This document shows, in pieces, positions 1,413 to 32,425 of a stretch of 64,000 nucleotides of DNA; the first letter of the stretch is position 1, and each line of letters opens with the position of its first letter. The translations under genes and the position numbers were made by a program. A model generated the notes under the pieces. The model did no database searches. It had not been told where the DNA came from and saw only the letters and a list, made by a program, of their open reading frames with translations. This DNA is from Escherichia coli O127:H6 str. E2348/69 (GTDB taxonomy: Bacteria; Pseudomonadota; Gammaproteobacteria; Enterobacterales; Enterobacteriaceae), in NCBI RefSeq assembly GCF_000026545.1, contig NC_011601.1; one strand, written 5' to 3'.

Positions 1413-4088
1413 TTAAGCGGATTTTTTCGCTTTTTTCTCAGCTTTAGCCGGAGCAGCTTCTTTCTTCGCTGCAGTTTCGCCTTCTACATAATCACGACCG
1501 TAGTAGGTATCCAGCAGAATCTGTTTCAGCTCGGAGATCAGCGGGTAACGCGGGTTAGCGCCGGTGCACTGGTCATCGAATGCATCTTCAGACAGTTTAT
1601 CCACGTTCGCCAGGAAGTCTGCTTCCTGAACGCCAGCTTCACGGATAGATTTCGGAATACCCAGTTCAGCTTTCAGCGTTTCCAGCCATGCCAGCAGTTT
1701 CTCGATCTTAGCTGCAGTACGGTCGCCCGGTGCGCTCAGACCCAGGTGGTCAGCAATTTCAGCATAACGACGGCGAGCCTGCGGACGGTCATACTGGCTG
1801 AATGCAGTCTGCTTGGTCGGGTTGTCATTCGCGTTGTAGCGAATAACGTTACAAATCAGCAGGGCGTTTGCCAGACCGTGCGGAATATGGAACTGGGAAC
1901 CCAGTTTGTGCGCCATTGAGTGACATACACCCAGGAAGGCGTTCGCAAACGCGATACCCGCGATAGTCGCTGCACTGTGAACACGTTCACGCGCTACCGG
2001 ATTTTTAGACCCTTCGTGGTAGGACACTGGCAGATATTCTTTCAGTAGTTTCAGTGCCTGCAGAGCCTGACCATCAGAGAACTCAGATGCCAGTACAGAA
2101 ACATAAGCTTCCATGGCGTGAGTTACTGCGTCCAGACCACCGAAAGCACACAGGGACTTCGGCATGTCCATAACAAGGTTGGCGTCGACAATCGCCATAT
2201 CCGGGGTCAGTGCATAGTCTGCCAGCGGATATTTCTGACCAGTAGTGTCGTCAGTTACAACCGCAAACGGAGTGACTTCAGAACCTGTACCGGAAGTGGT
2301 GGTGACAGCGATCATTTTCGCTTTCACACCCATTTTCGGGAACTTGTAGATACGTTTACGGATATCCATAAAGCGCAGCGCCAGTTCTTCGAAGTGAGTT
2401 TCCGGATGTTCGTACATAACCCACATGATCTTCGCAGCGTCCATCGGGGAACCACCACCCAGCGCGATAATCACGTCTGGTTTGAAGGAGTTTGCCAGTT
2501 CTGCACCTTTACGAACGATGCTCAGGGTCGGGTCAGCTTCTACTTCGAAGAAGACTTCAGTTTCAACGCCTGCTGCTTTCAATACGGAAGTGATCTGATC
2601 AGCATAACCATTGTTGAACAGGAAGCGGTCAGTCACGATGAGCGCACGTTTGTGGCCATCAGTAATCACTTCATCCAGCGCGATTGGCAGGGAGCCACGG
2701 CGGAAGTAGATAGATTTCGGAAGTTTGTGCCACAACATGTTTTCAGCTCGCTTAGCAACGGTTTTCTTGTTGATCAGGTGTTTCGGACCAACGTTTTCAG
2801 AGATGGAGTTACCACCCCAGGAACCACAACCCAGAGTCAGGGAAGGTGCGAGTTTGAAGTTATACAGGTCACCGATACCACCCTGAGAAGCCGGGGTGTT
2901 AATCAGGATACGAGCCGTTTTCATTTTCTGACCGAAGTAAGAAACGCGAGCCGGTTGGTTATCCTGGTCAGTGTACAGGCAAGAGGTATGACCGATACCG
3001 CCCATAGCAACCAGTTTCTCTGCTTTTTCTACCGCGTCTTCGAAATCTTTAGCACGGTACATTGCCAGAGTCGGGGACAGTTTTTCATGTGCGAACGGTT
3101 CGCTTTCATCAACAACGGTCACTTCGCCGATCAGAATCTTGGTGTTTTCTGGTACAGAGAAGCCTGCCAGTTCAGCAATTTTATAGGCTGGCTGACCAAC
3201 GATAGCCGCGTTCAGCGCACCGTTTTTCAGGATAACGTCCTGAACAGCTTTCAGCTCTTTACCCTGCAACAGATAGCCGCCGTGGGTTGCGAAACGTTCA
3301 CGTACTGCGTCATAAACAGAGTCAACAACAACAACAGACTGTTCAGAAGCACAGATTACACCGTTGTCGAAGGTTTTGGACATCAGTACAGATGCAACTG
3401 CACGTTTGATATCAGCAGTTTCATCGATAACAACCGGAGTGTTGCCCGCGCCTACGCCGATAGCTGGTTTACCGGAGCTGTATGCGGCTTTAACCATGCC
3501 CGGACCACCAGTCGCGAGGATCAGGTTGATGTCTGGGTGGTGCATCAGTGCGTTAGACAGTTCAACAGAAGGTTGATCGATCCAGCCGATCAGATCTTTC
3601 GGAGCACCGGCAGCGATAGCAGCCTGTAGAACGATATCAGCCGCTTTGTTGGTTGCATCTTTTGCACGCGGGTGCGGGGAGAAGATAATGGCGTTACGGG
3701 TCTTCAGGCTGATCAGCGATTTGAAGATAGCAGTTGAAGTCGGGTTAGTGGTCGGAACGATACCGCAAATAATACCGATGGGTTCAGCGATAGTGATGGT
3801 ACCAAAAGTGTCGTCTTCAGACAGAACACCACAGGTTTTTTCATCTTTATAGGCGTTGTAGATATATTCAGAAGCAAAGTGGTTTTTGATCACTTTATCT
3901 TCGACGATACCCATGCCGGATTCGGCAACGGCCATTTTCGCGAGTGGGATTCGAGCATCTGCAGCAGCCAGAGCGGCGGCGCGGAAGATTTTGTCTACTT
4001 GCTCTTGAGTGAAACTGGCATATTCACGCTGGGCTTTTTTTACACGCTCTACGAGTGCGTTAAGTTCAGCGACATTAGTAACAGCCAT
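1413..4088 (-). CDS. adhE: bifunctional aldehyde/alcohol dehydrogenase AdhE (891 aa)
   Basis: Full-length ORF with N-terminal aldehyde dehydrogenase and C-terminal Fe-alcohol dehydrogenase regions; sequence recognisable as E. coli AdhE. Confidence 0.97.
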
Positions 4089-23705: not shown

Positions 23706-24394
23706 ATTTTATTTAATAGCTCCCGTTCGTGTTTTCTCTTGTTAATGGCATCTTCAGTAAATACAGGGTTACTGATAGTGACACCAATTTCAAAACAACC
23801 TTCAGACGTATTAACGTTTGGTAATAACGTTTCCATTATCGCGTCCTCAACAATGAATTTTGTGATGTGGTGCCTGGTGCCTCCAGGTGACGTTAACCAG
23901 TTAACAATTAACGCCGGATACAGAGAATCCACCCATAACACTGTTTTTGGTTTTAACTGTTCCGCGTGCGCTCAGCCGCATTCACCGCATCACAAAATTC
24001 ACTTTAAAAACGGCGGCAGAGCAGTCACGGAGTAAAACTGATACCGCCAAACGTCACCAGAAAATTGATAACAGAGGGCGTTGCAGCGGGGTTGTCGCTT
24101 AAGCGTATGGTCAACCTGACAACCCGGTGTCCTCAACGGGGAAGGAATAACCCCGCCATACTTACCGCCGCGCCATTTCGCGGAGTGCCACAACCGGAAG
24201 CGCACGGTCGAACTAAATTTAACGACACCGTACAGAGAGACCAATTTTGCCGTGCGCTTTCGCGTTATGCCCTGACTTTTCAGGGACATATCCTTTCAGT
24301 AAACTGTCAGTGCCGGATGTTCACCCGTGTCCGGCGCACGCACTCCACCTGACCCGTGGAGAACTCCTTAATTACCAACCCTCAGGAGGGTGAA

Positions 24395-24673
24395 ATGGAT
24401 AAAAAGCAAATTGAGGCCCTGCAATCTATTATTGAAAAACAAGATGAAGCTATCAGGATTCTTTCATATCGCACTGATATGATACTAAATATGCTTTCTG
24501 CATTAACGGCTGCGCTTGGTGGTACAAAAACAAACGTATACCGCGAAGTTGTTATTCAACAGATAGATAAATTTGAAAAAACCATACCAGGTATTAATGC
24601 TCATCTTGCAGAACAAGAGAAAGACCATGCTCTTATGGCAATTTCTTCAGTAGCTCTCCCGAAAGTTGAGTAG
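24395..24673 (+). CDS. hypothetical coiled-coil protein, opposite strand within the early-left region
   Basis: Track ORF 24356..24673; ATG 24395 preceded by AGGAGG (24383-24388); product MDKKQIEALQSIIEKQDEAIRIL... Confidence 0.45.
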   Translation: MDKKQIEALQSIIEKQDEAIRILSYRTDMILNMLSALTAALGGTKTNVYREVVIQQIDKFEKTIPGINAHLAEQEKDHALMAISSVALPKVE

Positions 24674-25046
24674 TTTTAATTGTTGTTTTGAAATAATCAC
24701 TGCTTTCACATTTGAGTGATTTCATGGCAATCCAAATGCGGGCCTCTGTGCCTGCATTTGGTTCCAGTTGCTGTAGACGTTTTGCGTCTTCCAAAAGTAA
24801 GGCGATAATGTGTTTCAGCTTCTCATCATTTGCTTGATTCTTGTTTTCAGGCGAATTCTGTCCGCCGAATAGGCGCTTCTCTTCATACAGACCTATAAAG
24901 GCACGACGCACGTTACCGGATATAGTATCGATGGTTTCTTTTTCTACGGTACTCAGGTCAAGAGTCGCCAGTTGAGAGCGAACCACATTCGATGCCATTT
25001 CCTGGAATGGTACTGGTAAATCTTTAAATTCCATCGTCAACCTCAT
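24633..25046 (-). CDS. hypothetical early-left protein
   Basis: 137-aa ORF directly downstream of the next ORF on the repressor side; no recognisable motif. Confidence 0.4.
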   Translation of the reverse strand: MRLTMEFKDLPVPFQEMASNVVRSQLATLDLSTVEKETIDTISGNVRRAFIGLYEEKRLFGGQNSPENKNQANDEKLKHIIALLLEDAKRLQQLEPNAGTEARIWIAMKSLKCESSDYFKTTIKTTQLSGELLKKLP

Positions 25047-25279
25047 CAGTCAGTGTTTCTGGTTAACCAGCGACGCGCGCCAGCTTCAGTTTTAAACGTT
25101 TTGCTTCTGGTATACGTCATCGCGGTAAACGTGCCGTCCTGGTTGGGGAACACGCCACATACCAGAGATTCGTTGTTGCCAAGATTGAGCATATCCATGT
25201 TGACCTCATTTCCCCTTAACGCCGGGGTAGCGGAACAAAAACCTGCTGCATAGTTATTAAAGTTGAACCCTGCCGTCAT
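25046..25279 (-). CDS. hypothetical early-left protein
   Basis: 77-aa ORF abutting the 24633..25046 ORF. Confidence 0.4.
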   Translation of the reverse strand: MTAGFNFNNYAAGFCSATPALRGNEVNMDMLNLGNNESLVCGVFPNQDGTFTAMTYTRSKTFKTEAGARRWLTRNTD

Positions 25280-25385
25280 GTTCTTACGCCTCGGGCTGGC
25301 TACTTAACCCCTGACCACTGCCTGGTAACTCGAAGTATTGCCCTGCATTCTGTGGGGCGGGGTGGGTTGGTATGAAAAGAAGGAT

Positions 25386-25420
25386 ACCCATAGGTATTTA
25401 AAAAGTAAATACCTATGGGT
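25386..25420. promoter_or_regulatory. 35-bp near-perfect palindrome (acccataggtattta-aaaag-taaatacctatgggt) downstream of the repressor gene; terminator or operator
   Basis: 15-bp arms are exact reverse complements; followed by aaattttt. Confidence 0.5.
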
Positions 25421-25463
25421 AAATTTTTGCGGTGTCTTAACTGGTGACTAGTTGTTTGGTGAG

Positions 25464-25883
25464 CTATGATGCGTTTTGTGCTTTCTTTTTACGGATTTCT
25501 TCGTAGATCATATTGTAATACTGTTTTTTCTCTTCAAGAGTTTTTAATAATTTATCCGCTTCACTTTCTGGCAGTTCGTCTAAGAGATCTAAAAAAATAC
25601 GTTGTCGTGGCGTTAGAACCCTTGTTTCATAACTGGAGGCTGTGTTCGTTGATGATGAAACGATACCATCCATCCATCCCCGGGGTAACCCAAAGGACTC
25701 TTCGATAATCTCCACCATATCATCAGCGATCCGTTTTTTTCCCTTTTTCCCCTCTGGGTACAACATTCTTGATACATAAGAAGGCTCGCGCCCGATCTTT
25801 CTGGCCACGTTAACCGCTTTACCATCGCATTTCTCATCACGAATTTTGATGAGTTGCTGTCGTCTAAATTCATATTTGTCCAT
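25464..25883 (-). CDS. prophage repressor, XRE-type HTH (RacR/CI-like), no LexA-type peptidase domain seen
   Basis: 139 aa, HTH around GKAVNVARKIGREPSYVSRM; divergent from a cro-like gene. Confidence 0.75.
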   Translation of the reverse strand: MDKYEFRRQQLIKIRDEKCDGKAVNVARKIGREPSYVSRMLYPEGKKGKKRIADDMVEIIEESFGLPRGWMDGIVSSSTNTASSYETRVLTPRQRIFLDLLDELPESEADKLLKTLEEKKQYYNMIYEEIRKKKAQNAS

Positions 25884-25983
25884 AGGTAAATAATAGATGC
25901 GATTACCGCAAGGTAAACAACCTGTGGGTATTGGTTTTTGTTTACCTGCGGGTATTCTTTGCTGTGTTTACTAAGGAGTAGCT
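25884..25983. promoter_or_regulatory. divergent repressor/cro intergenic operator-promoter region
   Basis: Contains inverted repeat ggtaaacaa ... ttgtttacc and a second tgtttac copy between the divergent genes. Confidence 0.5.
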
Positions 25984-26265
25984 ATGGAAGAATTAAGAAT
26001 ATTTCTCAATTCTCTTTCGTCAGATGAACAGCGTATGTTTGCATGCGAGTGTGGTACCAGCATCGGTTATCTAAGAAAGGCATTGAGTAAAGGTCAAGTG
26101 TTAGGGGCATCGTTATGTGTCCTTATTGAGCGAGCCAGTAATGGTGAAGTTACACGTCAGCAACTAAGGCCTTTTGATTGGATGAATATTTGGCCCGAGC
26201 TGGAAGATACCAAAACGTTAACACAACCACTTTCTAGGAGCTTGATTCATGAAAATCAAGCATGA
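25984..26265 (+). CDS. Cro/YdaS-like HTH protein
   Basis: 93 aa, first rightward gene opposite the repressor; HTH-like CGTSIGYLRKALSKGQ. Confidence 0.65.
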   Translation: MEELRIFLNSLSSDEQRMFACECGTSIGYLRKALSKGQVLGASLCVLIERASNGEVTRQQLRPFDWMNIWPELEDTKTLTQPLSRSLIHENQA

Positions 26266-26674
26266 ACACATCCGCATGGCGATGAATGTCTGGGCGCATC
26301 CGGACGGCGAAAAAGTGCCGGCTGCGAAAATTACCAAAGCGTATTTCGAGCTGGGAATGACGTTCCCGGAACTGTATGACGACAGCCATCCGGAAGCCCT
26401 GGCCCGTAATACCCAGAAAATTTTCCGTTGGCTGGATAAAGACACCCCTGATGCTGTTGAAAAAATGCAGGCTCTGTTACCGGCGATCGAAAAGGCGATG
26501 CCGCCTTTGCTGGTGGCCCGTATGCGCAGCCACAGTTCTGAATATTACCGTGAGATCGTCGAACGGAGGGATCGGCTGGTGAAGGATGTCGATGATTTTG
26601 TTGCGTCAGCGGTTGTTTTGTATGACCAGATGAATCGCGGCGGCCCGGCAGGGAATGCTGTGGTGATGCACTAA
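26249..26674 (+). CDS. YdaT-like protein (Rac-type immunity-region partner of YdaS)
   Basis: 141 aa, overlaps the preceding gene; position matches Rac-type racR-ydaS-ydaT arrangement. Confidence 0.55.
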   Translation: MKIKHEHIRMAMNVWAHPDGEKVPAAKITKAYFELGMTFPELYDDSHPEALARNTQKIFRWLDKDTPDAVEKMQALLPAIEKAMPPLLVARMRSHSSEYYREIVERRDRLVKDVDDFVASAVVLYDQMNRGGPAGNAVVMH

Positions 26675-26681
26675 AAGCACG

Positions 26682-27659
26682 GTGTTCGGGGGTTTTATGA
26701 GCAGCAAGCTTCATGGTCTTGTCTGGGAAGGGTGCGCCTTCACCGGCATGATCTTATCCAGGGGGGCGGTTATGGCCCGTCTTGCAGACTACAGCAATGA
26801 CGAGGGCGTGTCATGGCCTGCCATTGAAACTATCCGGCGTCAGATCGGTGCAAGAAGTGAATCCACAGTGAAATCGGCTATTGCAGAACTGGCGAAAGAG
26901 GGCTGGCTGACGAAGGAAGAGCGTAAGGTCGGTGGGCGTAATGTAAGCAATATCTATCGGCTTAATGTGGAAAAACTCGAAGCAGCTGCGGCGGCGGCGC
27001 GTGAGTCATATAAACCGAAAAGAAAAATTAGCCCGGCAAAAAATGACCCGTTAACAGTTGACCCGTCAAATATTGACCCCTCAACGGTTGACCCGTCAAA
27101 TTTTGATGGATCAACTGTTGATAAAAAACTGCCGATTAGGGGGGCGATGATTGACCCCGATCCGTCAGTATTAAAACCTGATCCGTCAGATAAAAGATCT
27201 TCTTGTCCGGACGCTTCGCAACCGGACCCGCAGACGGCTGAACAGGATTTTTTAACCCGACACCCTGACGCGGTTGTGTTCAGTGCGAAAAAACGCCAGT
27301 GGGGAAGTCAGGAAGATTTGGTGTGCGCACAGTGGATCTGGGGACGAATCGTGAGTCTTTACGAGCAGGCGGCCAGCTATGATGGCGAGATCACTAGACC
27401 GAAAGAACCCAACTGGACAGCATGGGCCAATGACGTTCGCACAATGCGGATGCTGGATGGCAGAACTCACAGACAAATTTGTGAAATGTTTGGGCGTCTC
27501 CAGCGGGATTCGTTCTGGGTAAAAAACATCATGAGTCCGGCAAAACTCCGGGAAAAATGGGATGAACTGGTTATCCGCCTGGGGCGTTCGCCTGCGCAGC
27601 GTTGCGTGAATCACATTTCTGAACCGGACACTGAAATTCCGCCGGGCTTCAGGGGGTAA
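26682..27659 (+). CDS. replication initiator, O-like (N-terminal winged-helix; internal iteron-encoding repeats)
   Basis: 325 aa; gene body carries 15-bp-spaced TTGACCCGTCAAA-like repeats encoding DPLTVDPSNIDPSTVDPSNFDGSTVD. Confidence 0.7.
   Translation: MFGGFMSSKLHGLVWEGCAFTGMILSRGAVMARLADYSNDEGVSWPAIETIRRQIGARSESTVKSAIAELAKEGWLTKEERKVGGRNVSNIYRLNVEKLEAAAAAARESYKPKRKISPAKNDPLTVDPSNIDPSTVDPSNFDGSTVDKKLPIRGAMIDPDPSVLKPDPSDKRSSCPDASQPDPQTAEQDFLTRHPDAVVFSAKKRQWGSQEDLVCAQWIWGRIVSLYEQAASYDGEITRPKEPNWTAWANDVRTMRMLDGRTHRQICEMFGRLQRDSFWVKNIMSPAKLREKWDELVIRLGRSPAQRCVNHISEPDTEIPPGFRG
27043..27192. repeat. candidate origin of replication: five 15-bp-spaced iterons (27043-27115) plus further half-sites to about 27192, inside the O-like gene
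   Basis: Repeats at about 27043, 27058, 27073, 27088, 27103; then attgaccccgatccgtcag and ctgatccgtcagat. Confidence 0.65.
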
Positions 27660-28797: not shown

Positions 28798-29331
28798 GTG
28801 GAGATAATAATGGGAATAACTAAAGAACGATTGTTGGAAATAGCAAACCTTAGTGATTGGGCATTAAGTGATGAGAGAATTGTTTCTCCTCATGCTTATG
28901 AGTCAGTTACAAGTATAGAAATAACAACAATGGCTAGAATGCTGCTTGGTTATTTCAAAATAGAAAATAAAAAACAGATGGATAGTAATGTTGATATATG
29001 TGAGATTTTAGACGATTGGGGGGCTTGGGTTGTGGCTGGTAATAGTTCTATTGATTGGCAGGAAATAGCTGATAAATATAAAAATGTTGTTCCTCATGGT
29101 AAAAAATCACGTCGTCAGTGCAGCAATGATGAAGGGCGAATTATTGACATTAGTATCCTTAGGTTAGAAAGATATAAGCAACAAGAATATGAGTTAATTG
29201 TTGCTCATTTCGTGATTGGTTTATCTCTTCGTGCTATTGCAAAGCAACAAGGATGTTCAGATGGAACAATTCGTAAAAGATTGCAAAAAGCCTTAGGTTT
29301 TTTGACTGGATATATAGCAATTACCAGTTAA
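28798..29331 (+). CDS. regulatory protein with sigma-70 region-4-like HTH C-terminus
   Basis: 177 aa; C-terminus ...LSLRAIAKQQGCSDGTIRKRLQKALGFL resembles sigma region 4.2 / antiterminator-type HTH. Confidence 0.5.
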   Translation: MEIIMGITKERLLEIANLSDWALSDERIVSPHAYESVTSIEITTMARMLLGYFKIENKKQMDSNVDICEILDDWGAWVVAGNSSIDWQEIADKYKNVVPHGKKSRRQCSNDEGRIIDISILRLERYKQQEYELIVAHFVIGLSLRAIAKQQGCSDGTIRKRLQKALGFLTGYIAITS

Positions 29332-29969
29332 GAGTCAGCGGTTTTTTTACCAGTGTAATGGTATAAGGATACTCCCATGTGTCTTACATGATATGGAAGC
29401 GCTGTTGCTGGATGCTTTGTGATACTCTTAAAGCGGAGGGGAGAGCCTTCCGCTTCAATTTCTGCGTCCGAAACGGTCGTAGAGAAAAATTCTTTCCATT
29501 CATTGAATTTTACTGCTGATTTGTCAGACTTTATATAAATTAGAATTCCTCCATGATCGTCACGTGACGTACCCGTGCCGTAACGTTCGGTTAGCTGAAT
29601 CCAGCCATTATGAATAGATTTGGGGCCTCTCCATAATTTTGCTTCACCGATCCATTCGAATTTTCCGAATTGATGTTTAACTAATAAATCAACGTGACCG
29701 CCATGTTGAGTATCATGTTCAACATCATAAAACCTACCTTTCAGGAAATTTTTGATCGACGCTGTTAGCTCGTCCTCTCCCCACTTAGCATCTTGATAGA
29801 AGTGTTTGTCATTTTCTAAATTCTGAATAGCGTCGTCTAAATCTTCATAGAGTTGCTTTACAAAAATATTTTTGTCTGCAGCTAATTTTCTTTGAACCAT
29901 TCCCCTAAATTCAGGATCCATTCTAATTAATGATTGAAGGTCTGCAGTACAGATGTTTACATCACTCAT
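29328..29969 (-). CDS. cassette gene C: putative Mrr-like PD-(D/E)xK nuclease (213 aa)
   Basis: Start placed at ATG 29969 (MSDVNICT..., GGAG upstream) rather than track start 30032; motif HGGHVDLLVKHQFGKFEWIGEAKLW resembles the Mrr-cat GxGxhD ... (Q/E)xK signature; 8-nt overlap with gene B. Confidence 0.55.
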   Translation of the reverse strand: MSDVNICTADLQSLIRMDPEFRGMVQRKLAADKNIFVKQLYEDLDDAIQNLENDKHFYQDAKWGEDELTASIKNFLKGRFYDVEHDTQHGGHVDLLVKHQFGKFEWIGEAKLWRGPKSIHNGWIQLTERYGTGTSRDDHGGILIYIKSDKSAVKFNEWKEFFSTTVSDAEIEAEGSPLRFKSITKHPATALPYHVRHMGVSLYHYTGKKTADS

Positions 29970-30390
29970 GCAGACTCTCCAAAAGACTCGAAGGAGTAAA
30001 GTATGGATAAAGATACTGGCTAAAATTATCAACCAATTCGCCAGTTTCTGGATGGTAAAAACTTCCTGTGTCTAAAGCATAGGAAATAAGATCATCTTCA
30101 ACTGGTATTGGTTCTTCCGTTAAATTATCAATGTATTGAAAATGCATATCCAATAGATGTGCTTTATAGCTAGATAAATAATCAGTTGCTTTTATTAGCA
30201 GGATATAGCCATCTTTCGTATCAGTTAGATAGGTTAAACCATTGATAAGGGTTTTGTATGTAAAGTGATTGATATTTTTAGCATCTTTACTAACCAGAAA
30301 AAGAAAAAGATCACGACACACACTGCGAACAGGATCATTAAAATCCTGCTCTATTTGCGTGATAATGTCGTGATATATACTCTTTTTCAT
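29962..30390 (-). CDS. cassette gene B: hypothetical protein (142 aa), no recognisable domain
   Basis: ATG overlaps stop of gene A (ATGA); AT-rich codon usage distinct from neighbours. Confidence 0.55.
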   Translation of the reverse strand: MKKSIYHDIITQIEQDFNDPVRSVCRDLFLFLVSKDAKNINHFTYKTLINGLTYLTDTKDGYILLIKATDYLSSYKAHLLDMHFQYIDNLTEEPIPVEDDLISYALDTGSFYHPETGELVDNFSQYLYPYFTPSSLLESLHE

Positions 30391-31484
30391 TTATGGCCTG
30401 ATGATCTCGCTCTTCTTTTCTCTTCACAGGACTTAACAGAATCCAATATTTTTTCAACAATAAATATAATCGAATCAATGTTGTTACAGTTCTTCGCAAT
30501 TGCTTCATGCAACCTAATTCTAGGATTATCAAGCATTGTCCTTTTTCCTGGTAATATTAACTCTACTGATAAAATATGTGAAGAACTTTGTGGTAAATCC
30601 CAAATTTTTCCCAACTTAAACTTTGTCAATATTGGGCTTGCGGACTCTCCACTATGATGGTAAACATCTTGACGCAAACACTTTTGACTTGGTTTGAGTT
30701 TTAAAGAACTTGTATTGCCATCTGAGGTGATAAAAGATACATGAGAAATTCTGCCATCTACTTTTTCGTAAAGATCTTGTATTGAACCAAATAATTCAAG
30801 AGGATTGTTTAAAATAACGCCAGCTTCTTTTTTTATAAATTTAGCCACAAGGTATTGTTGAGGCTGTGATTCACTTCTTGGAAGGATAGATAAATCAATC
30901 GTAAGAATTAATATTTTTTCTGCAGGCATTAGCATGATGGTATTAAAGCATTGCGTGACTTGGCGTGTTTTGCATTTTATTTCTCCACCATTAGCACGTA
31001 ATTCCATACCCGCATCGCTAAGATGTGTTGGGTCAAGCTCTATCACTTCAGTGTAATACGCTTTGGATAAAAAAACAGCAGTGTCAATTTGTTTATCACG
31101 AATGATATCTTGACGTAGTTCAGCAAAATGCAGCTCAGTATCAGCAACTAACAGCTCCTCTCTGGATAAAGGAATTGGGTATTTTTCTGAGAAGGGGCTA
31201 TTGTCCTTTTTCTGATTTGTGAAAATTGTTTGTAATTTTGCTACGTCTTCATCGGTGATTCTATAAATAGAAAGTAATCGATTCCCGCTAAAAATTAAAC
31301 CTTTCCAGAAATCGTCGATTCTGTCTTTTAGGTCGGGATTATGCTGAACTACACTATTTACACGTTCAATAAAAAGGGGTAATCCTTGGGCCGTTACACC
31401 CAGTGATGAACCAAGAAGCTTACGGGTGTTGCGCCAGCCAAAGCGTGAATTGATGTTTTTTACTGTTTGCTCAAGCATTAACAC
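30387..31484 (-). CDS. cassette gene A: hypothetical protein (365 aa), no recognisable domain
   Basis: First gene of a three-gene minus-strand operon; no Walker or other nucleotide-binding motif seen. Confidence 0.6.
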   Translation of the reverse strand: MLMLEQTVKNINSRFGWRNTRKLLGSSLGVTAQGLPLFIERVNSVVQHNPDLKDRIDDFWKGLIFSGNRLLSIYRITDEDVAKLQTIFTNQKKDNSPFSEKYPIPLSREELLVADTELHFAELRQDIIRDKQIDTAVFLSKAYYTEVIELDPTHLSDAGMELRANGGEIKCKTRQVTQCFNTIMLMPAEKILILTIDLSILPRSESQPQQYLVAKFIKKEAGVILNNPLELFGSIQDLYEKVDGRISHVSFITSDGNTSSLKLKPSQKCLRQDVYHHSGESASPILTKFKLGKIWDLPQSSSHILSVELILPGKRTMLDNPRIRLHEAIAKNCNNIDSIIFIVEKILDSVKSCEEKRRARSSGHK

Positions 31485-31767
31485 TTCCTTAATTTTCCCT
31501 TAACAATTTAGGGTGCTAAACTTTTTTGCGCAGTTTACATAAAAAAATAGTGCGTACGCAAAAACTATCTAACATGATGAGCTTTAACCGGGAAATTTGT
31601 ATATGTTGTGAGCATAAAGTTGGCTGAGAAATCTAAAACGGGTAGAATGACTGCGGGTGCTTGAGGCTATCTGTCTCAGGCATGAACACCAAAAGGCAGA
31701 TAGAGAAAAGCCCCAGTTAACATTACGCGTCCGGCAAGACGCTTAACATTAATCTGAGGCCATATCT

Positions 31768-31980
31768 ATGCTCTACACACGTAGGTTAGCCTCTTACGTG
31801 CCGAAAGGCAAGGAGAAGCAGGCTATGAAGCAGCAAAAGGCGATGTTAATCGCCCTGATCGTCATCTGTTTAACCGTCATAATGACGGCACTGGTAACGA
31901 GGAAAGACCTCTGCGAGGTACGAATCCGAACCGGCCAGACGGAGGTCGCTGTCTTCACAGCTTACGAACCTGAGGAGTAA
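31768..31980 (+). CDS. mok: Mok-like overlapping reading frame of a hok-family type I toxin locus
   Basis: 70-aa frame whose C-terminal 51 codons are hok; arrangement as in hok/sok loci. Confidence 0.45.
   Translation: MLYTRRLASYVPKGKEKQAMKQQKAMLIALIVICLTVIMTALVTRKDLCEVRIRTGQTEVAVFTAYEPEE
31825..31980 (+). CDS. hok: Hok-family type I toxin (HokD/RelF-like, 51 aa)
   Basis: MKQQKAMLIALIVICLTVIMTALVTRKDLCEVRIRTGQTEVAVFTAYEPEE; AGGAG at 31811-31815. Confidence 0.85.
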   Translation: MKQQKAMLIALIVICLTVIMTALVTRKDLCEVRIRTGQTEVAVFTAYEPEE

Positions 31981-32146: not shown

Positions 32147-32425
32147 ATGGCGCACGATACCAAATTACACAATTCTGATGATTCTGCCGTCTTTGCCAGC
32201 AGGCACGGGCGGCGTTCCCGCACTTTCAAATCTGACTGGTTCCAGCATCCCCCATGCACTGAAGAACAGGCCGAGTGGCTAATTCAGTGCTACCGCAGAC
32301 ACGGATACGAGATTAAGAAAGCCCTCAGCCTCGATTATCGTCACTGGATAATCTCCGTCAGGCTTCCTTACTCCGAACGACCACCGCGTCCGTCCCGCAC
32401 ATTCCAGCAACGCATCTGGAGGTAA
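32147..32425 (+). CDS. hypothetical protein
   Basis: Track ORF 32018..32425 overlaps the hok terminator; start moved to internal Met (MAHDTKLH...). Confidence 0.4.
   Translation: MAHDTKLHNSDDSAVFASRHGRRSRTFKSDWFQHPPCTEEQAEWLIQCYRRHGYEIKKALSLDYRHWIISVRLPYSERPPRPSRTFQQRIWR

Follow-up and report, generated by a model that had tools for sequence, protein, structure and literature searches.

The stretch of DNA analysed here (the window) comprises 64,000 nucleotides of contig NC_011601.1 from Escherichia coli O127:H6 str. E2348/69, and the region of concern, at positions 25,386 to 26,674, is part of a lambdoid prophage inserted beside ompW. We put a probability of about 0.8 on this region being a lambda-like immunity switch of the CI/Cro/CII type, in which a 139-residue repressor acts on the sequence TACC-N4-GGTA and a palindrome beyond the end of the repressor gene serves as left operator and left promoter (OL and PL). 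The enrichment of this motif, the conserved layout of its copies, the domain composition of the repressor and the identity of the YdaT protein were observed directly and carry the proposal. The same prophage bears the effector genes nleA, nleH and nleF beyond its tail genes; what the switch controls is a carrier of type III effectors (NleA, NleH and NleF) in the prototype strain of enteropathogenic E. coli.

Proposed operator sites of the switch

The window contains four exact copies of TACC-N4-GGTA (25385, 25410, 25904 and 25943) against 0.42 occurrences expected, and none of 100 shuffled sequences contained four. All four copies fall inside the switch region, two of them in the palindrome and two in the region between the repressor and cro genes, where a fifth site with one mismatch is present at 25919. 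An earlier, sequence-only reading of this DNA had described inverted repeats of the tgtttac type in the divergent intergenic region. These do exist (25901-25920 and 25938-25957, 80% complementary) and prove to be the flanks of a more precise unit, a 12-bp symmetric operator of the form TACC-N4-GGTA with A/T flanks.

Comparison with relatives was informative in helping to define how these sites are arranged. Twenty-nine loci encoding the same DNA-binding domain (DBD) were fetched, from Yersinia, Edwardsiella, Klebsiella, Pantoea, Brenneria, Aeromonas, Providencia, Xenorhabdus, Arsenophonus, Paraburkholderia, Herbaspirillum, Neisseria, Stenotrophomonas and other gamma- and beta-proteobacteria, and 27 of them were counted together with the window, leaving out one locus cut at the repressor start (L025) and one duplicate of the window (L004). 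These 28 loci contain 86 exact motifs in 144 kb, where 2.2 are expected. The positions of the motifs relative to the repressor ATG are fixed among the relatives, at -72/-73, at -47 (usually ending GGTT) and at -32/-33. In 21 relatives there is an additional pair of motifs, 24-26 bp apart and lying +43 to +1837 downstream of the repressor gene, and inside this pair a TTGACx follows directly after site 1 and is separated by a 17-bp spacer from a -10 element made up of the terminal TA of site 2 and four further nucleotides (TATATT or TAATAT). In mEp043, a lambdoid phage available in culture, a nutL of the lambda type (boxB GCCCTGAAGAAGGGC) and gene N come after the pair. As to the duplicate that was left out (JAIJJM010000125.1, 'MAG: Collinsella sp.'), its repressor, Cro and DUF1391 gene are 100% identical to those of the E. 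coli prophage, and their presence in an actinobacterial Collinsella bin is almost certainly a case of binning contamination.

The strong palindrome that had been noted downstream of the repressor gene (35 bp, 25386-25420) is real and slightly longer, being a perfect palindrome of 37 bp. Its two arms of 16 nt (25385-25400 and 25406-25421) are 100% complementary around a loop of 5 nt, it lies 42 bp from the repressor stop codon on the downstream side, and as RNA it folds at -22.5 kcal/mol compared with -5.6 +/- 2.2 for shuffled sequences (z = -7.6), none of which was as stable. Each arm holds one operator (site A, 25385-25396; site B, 25410-25421), the two being 25 bp apart from start to start. 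The pair brackets the -35 hexamer of a predicted PL (TTTACT, 25409-25404) and overlaps its -10 hexamer (TATCCT, 25386-25381) across a 17-bp spacer, and a transcript from the predicted start near 25374 would read into the operon of DUF1391, DicF and dicB. Judged from its relatives, the palindrome is the left operator and promoter of the switch, because the equivalent pair frames a promoter and precedes nutL and gene N in mEp043. A functional connection between the palindrome and the operator repeats, which the sequence-only reading had placed in one switch, is supported; that reading had assigned the palindrome no role, and it is to OL/PL that the evidence now points. Our own first guess for PL, with the TTTACC of site B as its -35, was dropped, as the -35 of the relatives sits between the two sites.

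The distribution of differences between the window and phage Tritos bears on the same point. The two have in common the left flank as far as 25367 (95.5% identity), the tail-coding stretch 25465-25580 (75%) and the ydaT side from 26237, and they differ in two segments only, 25368-25464 with the palindrome and 25581-26236 with the DBD, the right operator (OR) and cro. The DBD of Tritos is a different one and so are its repeats, and TACC-N4-GGTA was found in none of Tritos, Rac and Qin. The palindrome-bearing segment thus travels with the DBD although the DNA between them does not. A cognate operator should behave in this way, a generic terminator should not.

At the other end of the repressor gene, the three sites of the 100-bp repressor/cro intergenic region (O2, O3 and O4) overlap, at the level of sequence, a PRM-like promoter, which was detected by a generic promoter scan, and a predicted right promoter (PR). 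The PRM arrangement of TTTACC, 16 bp, TAGAAT, 6 nt and ATG is common to most relatives, and in the window too the distance from the -10 to the repressor ATG (25883) is 6 nt. The repressor mRNA is predicted to be leaderless because only these 6 nt separate the -10 from the ATG; leaderless mRNA has been demonstrated experimentally for paaR2 and lambda cI (PMC8630535). The centre of O3 lies 41.5 bp upstream of the predicted PRM start, comparable to OR2 of lambda. For PR, the hexamers TTGGTT (25931-25936) and TATTCT (25953-25958) are separated by 16 bp and have the same geometry of site and promoter as those of PL. Two further copies of the operator with two mismatches each were seen, one over the cro ribosome-binding site (25969-25980, TACTAAGGAGTA) and one over the repressor start codon (25877-25888, TGTCCATAGGTA), and either may be a weak extra operator site.

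In the switch that we propose, the repressor would bind O4, O3 and O2, corresponding to OR1, OR2 and OR3, between the divergent repressor and cro genes, and also the two OL sites beyond the 3' end of its own gene. Bound at OL it would silence the operon that runs from DUF1391 through DicF, dicB, ydfD and exo to xis and int, and from O3 it would activate PRM and so its own synthesis, as in the case of lambda OR2. The 93-residue protein encoded by the first rightward gene would be the cognate Cro, and YdaT an exchangeable equivalent of CII acting at an operator of its own, OM. Looping between OL and OR, over some 533 bp, could also form part of this mechanism.

The repressor and its rightward partners

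It had been suggested that the repressor lacks an autocleavage domain of the LexA/CI type, and this is borne out. A Pfam scan of the protein gave nothing at E <= 0.1, hence no match to Peptidase_S24 (PF00717) or HTH_3, and the protein ends at residue 139 with a tail of two helices. A cryptic peptidase domain was considered as well and rejected, as none was found by Pfam, by PDB sequence search or by structure prediction. The N-terminal part tells a different story of relationship. Over residues 1 to about 76 the repressor has 64-82% identity to the start of many proteins of 221-242 residues that have PF00717 in their C-terminal half, homologues with 70-80% identity at the N-terminus being among those with PF00717, and residues 1-72 are 76% identical to the cI of mEp043. 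The C-terminal part, residues 89-134, aligns with residues 84-129 of DicA (33% identity, 61% positives, E = 2e-7), and this alignment covers the tail only, the XRE/HTH_3 N-terminal domain of DicA not being homologous. In the AlphaFold model (mean pLDDT 84) a helical helix-turn-helix (HTH) domain at 1-63 is joined through a linker at 77-87 to a helix-turn-long-helix tail at 92-138; the best match to a solved structure, Rep of phage SPC32H (PDB 5d50), is weak (Foldseek E = 2e-3, TM 0.44-0.48). From these comparisons the repressor is a domain chimera, with a DBD of the mEp043-cI/S24 family and a DicA-type two-helix tail, so that the S24 autocleavage domain has been replaced by that tail. The tail presumably mediates oligomerisation.

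The tail itself is more widely distributed. An exhaustive profile search, which provided the counts given here (a word-indexed search gave fragments only), located it at the extreme C-terminus of 271 clusters at the 50% identity level, mostly proteins of 110-180 residues, and the profile also recovered fragments of DicA. The N-termini to which it is joined are of many HTH families and include HTH_3 in 64 of 101 cases and Phage_CI_repr in 10, and also YdaS and P22_Cro types. It is therefore a widespread module for which Pfam has no model, and a candidate new domain family.

The absence of an S24 domain excludes RecA-stimulated self-cleavage on domain grounds, and the earlier suggestion that induction is not driven by RecA cleavage would follow from it. 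The repressor would have to be inactivated by another route, such as an antirepressor (possibly acting in trans from another prophage), instability, or a stochastic takeover by Cro. In Qin it is the antirepressor Rem that lifts repression by DicA (PMC10448788), and PaaR2 is described as not responding to mitomycin C (PMC8630535). No Rem homologue was detected in the window (tblastn of K-12 Rem, best E = 0.68), and the open reading frame (ORF) in the position of Qin rem (32147-32425, beside hokD) is unrelated to Rem. The only CTGT-N8-ACAG in the window, at 3339, is at chance level and outside the prophage, and the relaxed CTG-N10-CAG matches all deviate from the LexA consensus at 7 or more of 20 positions, which leaves no convincing LexA box. 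Neither an antirepressor nor dinI is annotated in the rest of the prophage in the window or in the 15 kb beyond, and a literature search found nothing on induction of the E2348/69 prophages.

The two rightward genes had been likened to the YdaS/YdaT pair, and here the family of the second is clear and that of the first only partly so. The second protein, of 141 residues, passes the Pfam YdaT_toxin model (PF06254) with 40.9 bits at a cut-off of 21, its residues 2-141 are 100% identical to the crystallised YdaT of CP-933P (PDB 8bt1), and its identity to YdaT of K-12 (Rac) is 31%. The first, of 93 residues, is of the YdaS kind but scores 25.8 bits against YdaS_toxin (PF15943), below the gathering cut-off of 30, and just one stretch of 28 residues aligns with K-12 YdaS, at 54% identity. 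This protein matches PHROG 35, and the solved Cro proteins 8c7k/8co2 at E = 1e-10. Its gene is inherited together with the DBD and the operators in 24 of the 28 loci, and YdaT is not. The OM sequence is the sole exact TTGATT-N6-AATCAA in the window, situated at the cro/ydaT junction across the ydaT start codon. The published literature treats YdaS and YdaT as equivalents of Cro and CII and not as toxins (PMC5917428, PMC8630535, PMC9986795), and the YdaT that is identical to the 141-residue protein is a tetramer which binds DNA in a sequence-specific manner and is an activator of a PRE-like promoter (PMC9986795, PMC8630535). The YdaS-like protein and YdaT are accordingly best read as equivalents of Cro and CII and not as toxins. 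Loss of repression would nonetheless do harm, by way of DicF/DicB and possibly also by overexpression of YdaT (PMC10448788, PMC11879457).

Alternative readings and known switches

The palindrome could instead be primarily a bidirectional intrinsic terminator, or could be a terminator in addition to OL, and we give this somewhat less than an even chance. It would then end the repressor transcript (from PRM or PRE) before the toxic dicF-dicB operon and stop antisense transcription that runs rightward. A pattern scan classed it as terminator-like on either strand, the stem measuring 16 bp and the tails being TCCTTCTTTT on the minus strand and AATTTTTGCG on the plus strand, and the RNA hairpin is very stable (-22.5 kcal/mol, z = -7.6), although the stem is AT-rich, 5 of its 16 pairs being GC, and the U-tract is not continuous. 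In relatives where space allows, the stretch from the repressor gene to OL includes a distinct GC-rich terminator, placed at most 30 nt from the stop codon in L014, L027 and L024, just before OL in L018, and after the ORF that follows cI in mEp043; the 42-bp gap between repressor gene and OL in the window contains no other hairpin. Among 93 near-identical IMG/VR loci, 72 have a single A-to-G change that turns an A-U pair into G.U on the repressor-sense RNA, 10 are perfect like the window and 3 have a compensated G-C, but the variants as a whole, 4 pair-preserving against 3 pair-breaking, are suggestive and not statistically significant. A transcript from the predicted PL would start downstream of the hairpin and so escape it. 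Termination alone leaves unexplained why the same eight specified bases recur in the OR region, why the 25-bp pair is kept in 21 distant relatives in which hairpin complementarity is only 8-13 of 16 positions (eight of these being forced by the motif itself), and why the palindrome segment was swapped together with the DBD, and for these reasons a function as terminator only was rejected. Hairpin termination of the repressor transcript would be a second role beside that of OL. A more tentative proposal joins this to the structure of the repressor, and is in our estimation slightly less probable than a terminator role as such. In it, the OL pair has been sharpened in this lineage into a perfect hairpin with two functions, the DNA serving as operator and promoter for the toxic dicF-dicB operon and the RNA as a terminator insulating that operon from the repressor transcript, and the DicA-type tail is an exchangeable 'induction module' on an unchanged cassette of DBD, operators and Cro, which swaps SOS-triggered self-cleavage for another route of inactivation.

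Two other explanations differ more fundamentally from an immunity switch with the palindrome as OL/PL. In the original description of the Rac genes, YdaS and YdaT are toxins that the repressor holds off, so that the whole would resemble a toxin-antitoxin module. The Pfam names YdaS_toxin and YdaT_toxin, the essentiality of racR in K-12 (PMC5700373, PMC5700377) and the toxicity of Rac YdaT on expression (PMC11879457) are in keeping with that description. It is nevertheless very unlikely to apply here, when it is considered that this YdaT is identical to a DNA-binding tetramer, the activator of a PRE-like promoter (PMC9986795, PMC8630535), that the 93-residue protein is a Cro homologue co-inherited with the operators, and that the surrounding genes form a complete lambdoid early region, with an O-like replication gene and Q antiterminators, and with lysis, head and tail genes; Jobling, moreover, attributes the toxicity to overexpression of regulators (PMC5917428). 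The palindrome might also be a chance or selfish sequence that takes no part in regulation, such as the remnant of the inverted repeat of a mobile element or a recombination scar left where mosaic segments join. It does lie at a mosaic boundary, homology with other phages stopping at 25367. However it is present as a single copy in the window, all 93 of the IMG/VR loci have it downstream of this repressor gene, its core motif is common to OR and conserved across proteobacterial classes, and no shuffle folded as well, and we consider an origin of this kind the least credible of all.

Several points weigh against the switch as we have proposed it. The predicted promoters are weak, PL (TTTACT-17-TATCCT) agreeing with the consensus at 8 of 12 positions and PR (TTGGTT-16-TATTCT) being likewise poor, and the generic promoter scan flagged neither of them. 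The 16/16 symmetry of the palindrome exceeds what two operator sites need and what the relatives have (8-13/16), and another factor may act on this sequence. Literature searches for mEp043 brought up no study of its operators, and cooperativity of the repressor and looping between OL and OR are conjecture.

By comparison of sequence and layout, the switch would work like that of lambda, is closest in kind to those of CP-933P and Qin, and has the specificity determinants of mEp043. The likeness to lambda consists in divergent PRM and PR, three operators of which the middle one is near -42 of PRM, a promoter-proximal pair with a spacing of 24-25 bp, a leaderless cI (predicted here) and a remote OL at PL. 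The proteins are not homologous to those of lambda, the operator is 12 bp instead of 17 bp, OL consists of two sites, the distance between O2 and O3 is only 15 bp, and the repressor has no S24 domain. With mEp043 the switch shares the DBD (76% over 72 residues), Cro, the OR positions (-72, -47, -32) and the 25-bp OL pair at PL. The cI of mEp043 has 228 residues; among the long relatives that were scanned, L016, also of 228 residues, and the others carry PF00717. In mEp043 OL lies about 400 bp from cI behind the separate terminator and drives nutL-N, and the cII is different.

CP-933P, with PaaR2, YdaS and YdaT (PMC8630535, PMC9986795), resembles the window in its short repressor without a peptidase domain, in a divergent Cro-like gene followed by ydaT, of which the window has the identical allele, with OM at the cro/ydaT junction, in a leaderless repressor mRNA (shown there, predicted here), and in extra operators (OL sites) and a PL beyond the repressor operon (PMC8630535). 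With its PRM, PR and PL it provides an experimental precedent for an architecture of this kind (PMC8630535). Its repressor, Cro and operators are different, with a repeat consensus of GTTTAGTAA instead of TACC-N4-GGTA; the window lacks the paaA2-parE2 toxin-antitoxin pair behind the repressor, and its OL has two sites that form a perfect hairpin. In Qin, where DicA, DicC, dicBF and Rem are the components (PMC10448788, PMC3441716), the repressor has a similar tail, its gene is directly followed by the operator-controlled promoter of an operon with DUF1391, DicF, dicB and ydfD, and two operator-like repeats, as we read the Qin sequence, bracket dicBp. DicA is known to repress dicBp (PMC10448788), and this provides a precedent. 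The N-terminal DBDs are unrelated and the operators differ, Rem has no homologue in the window, and the right-hand partners are DicC and YdfX in Qin but a YdaS-like protein and YdaT in the window.

The module had also been named Rac-type, and this designation does not hold in the strict sense because BLASTP showed no resemblance of the repressor to RacR (best E = 2.3, across 7 residues). Gene order is indeed that of Rac, with repressor, divergent YdaS-like gene and ydaT, and with a DUF1391 gene downstream of the repressor. The YdaT allele is that of CP-933P, with 31% identity to the one of Rac, similarity to YdaS is confined to the 28-residue stretch, and the leftward operon, with DUF1391, DicF, dicB and ydfD, is Qin-like, where Rac has kilR, racC and recE. 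Nor is the repressor of the S24 type, because it failed the domain test. The Gifsy repressors GfoR and GfhR (as cited in PMC10448788) and Rep of the SPC32H Rep-Ant pair (5d50) likewise combine an HTH with a small helical oligomerisation tail and lack autocleavage, but there is no sequence similarity to them, and the window yielded neither an antirepressor gene nor a promoter under LexA control.

For a repressor family that had been uncharacterised, the analysis supplies an operator sequence, a map of OR and OL, and a cultured relative of the SOS type, mEp043. In nature the same DBD, operators and Cro occur with an S24 domain in some cases and with a DicA-type tail in others, which provides a clean comparison for the induction of non-cleavable repressors such as DicA, RacR and PaaR2. 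The general picture of lambdoid immunity is unchanged by this. The mapped operators, the swapped domain and a possible overlap of operator and terminator add useful detail and are not surprising, the switch being of an ordinary kind that was already known.

Surroundings of the switch

The features of the switch and of the leftward early operon are listed in Table 1.

Table 1. Positions of regulatory sites, genes and protein segments in the window
Feature	Position	Strand	Basis or remark
Repressor gene, 139 aa	25464-25883	-	ORF; PHROGs: transcriptional regulator
Repressor DBD, mEp043-cI type	~aa 1-76, nt 25656-25883	-	sequence comparison
Repressor linker	aa 77-87	-	AlphaFold, disordered
DicA-type helical C-terminal module	aa 88-139, nt 25467-25622	-	DicA alignment, tail profile
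OL, perfect 37-bp palindrome with two TACC-N4-GGTA sites	25385-25421	.	motif and layout in relatives
Predicted PL (dicBp equivalent)	25381-25409	-	inferred from design conserved in relatives
PRM-like promoter, TTTACC-16-TATTAT	25890-25917	-	generic promoter scan
OR site O2 (OR3-like), TACCGCAAGGTA	25904-25915	.	overlaps PRM -35
OR site O3 (OR2-like), AACCTGTGGGTA, one mismatch	25919-25930	.	abuts PR -35
OR site O4 (OR1-like), TACCTGCGGGTA	25943-25954	.	overlaps PR spacer and -10
Predicted PR	25931-25958	+	inferred from TTGACT-16-TAAACT of relatives at the same place
Cro equivalent (YdaS-like), 93 aa	25984-26265	+	PHROG 35, PDB Cro match
YdaT (CII equivalent), 141 aa	26249-26674	+	Pfam, PDB 8bt1
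YdaT primary operator OM, TTGATTCATGAAAATCAA	26242-26259	.	published operator (PMC9986795)
Leftward early operon section, DUF1391 start to DicF	24011-25198	-	
DUF1391 gene, first of leftward early operon	25046-25198	-	RefSeq annotation; predicted PL control
ORF in leftward early operon	24633-25046	-	annotation
DicF small RNA	24011-24062	-	Rfam RF00039, 72.5 bits; upstream of dicB and ydfD, like Qin

A query of 1.4 kb, consisting of the switch with flanking sequence and ydaT, was matched over at least 80% of its length at one place in 812 of 5426 complete E. coli genomes (about 15%). Leftward from the switch follow the DUF1391 gene, DicF, dicB, ydfD, an exonuclease gene, xis and int, and rightward an O-like replication gene, DUF977, Q-type antiterminators, hokD/sok and the lysis, head and tail genes.

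On the leftward side, a mechanical ORF at 25046-25279 on the minus strand encodes 77 residues, and the DUF1391 gene of RefSeq represents its last 50 codons only; homology with Qin ydfA starts just upstream of the shorter start at 25198. A hypothetical gene in the opposite, rightward direction (24395-24673) is situated inside the leftward operon at the position that sieB has in Rac, and its transcript would head for the palindrome, which is terminator-like on the plus strand too.

On the rightward side, the O-like replication gene contains at 27023-27097 four copies of a repeat with a 15-bp period around TTGACCCGTCAA. These are probably origin iterons, to judge by the analogy of lambda, whose ori is inside gene O. 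Three leftward hypothetical genes of 197, 142 and 363 residues (29328-31478, minus strand) are found between two Q-type antiterminator genes; PADLOC gave a marginal PDC-S54 match only for these three and nothing solid, and they may constitute a moron or defence cassette. At 31655-31980 there is a sok antisense RNA (117 bits) together with the type I toxin gene hokD. On the downstream side of the Q gene lie two tRNA genes carried by the phage (Ile and Arg) and, after them, an ISEc13 insertion (34730-36484 in all), and this insertion may have disabled late gene expression.

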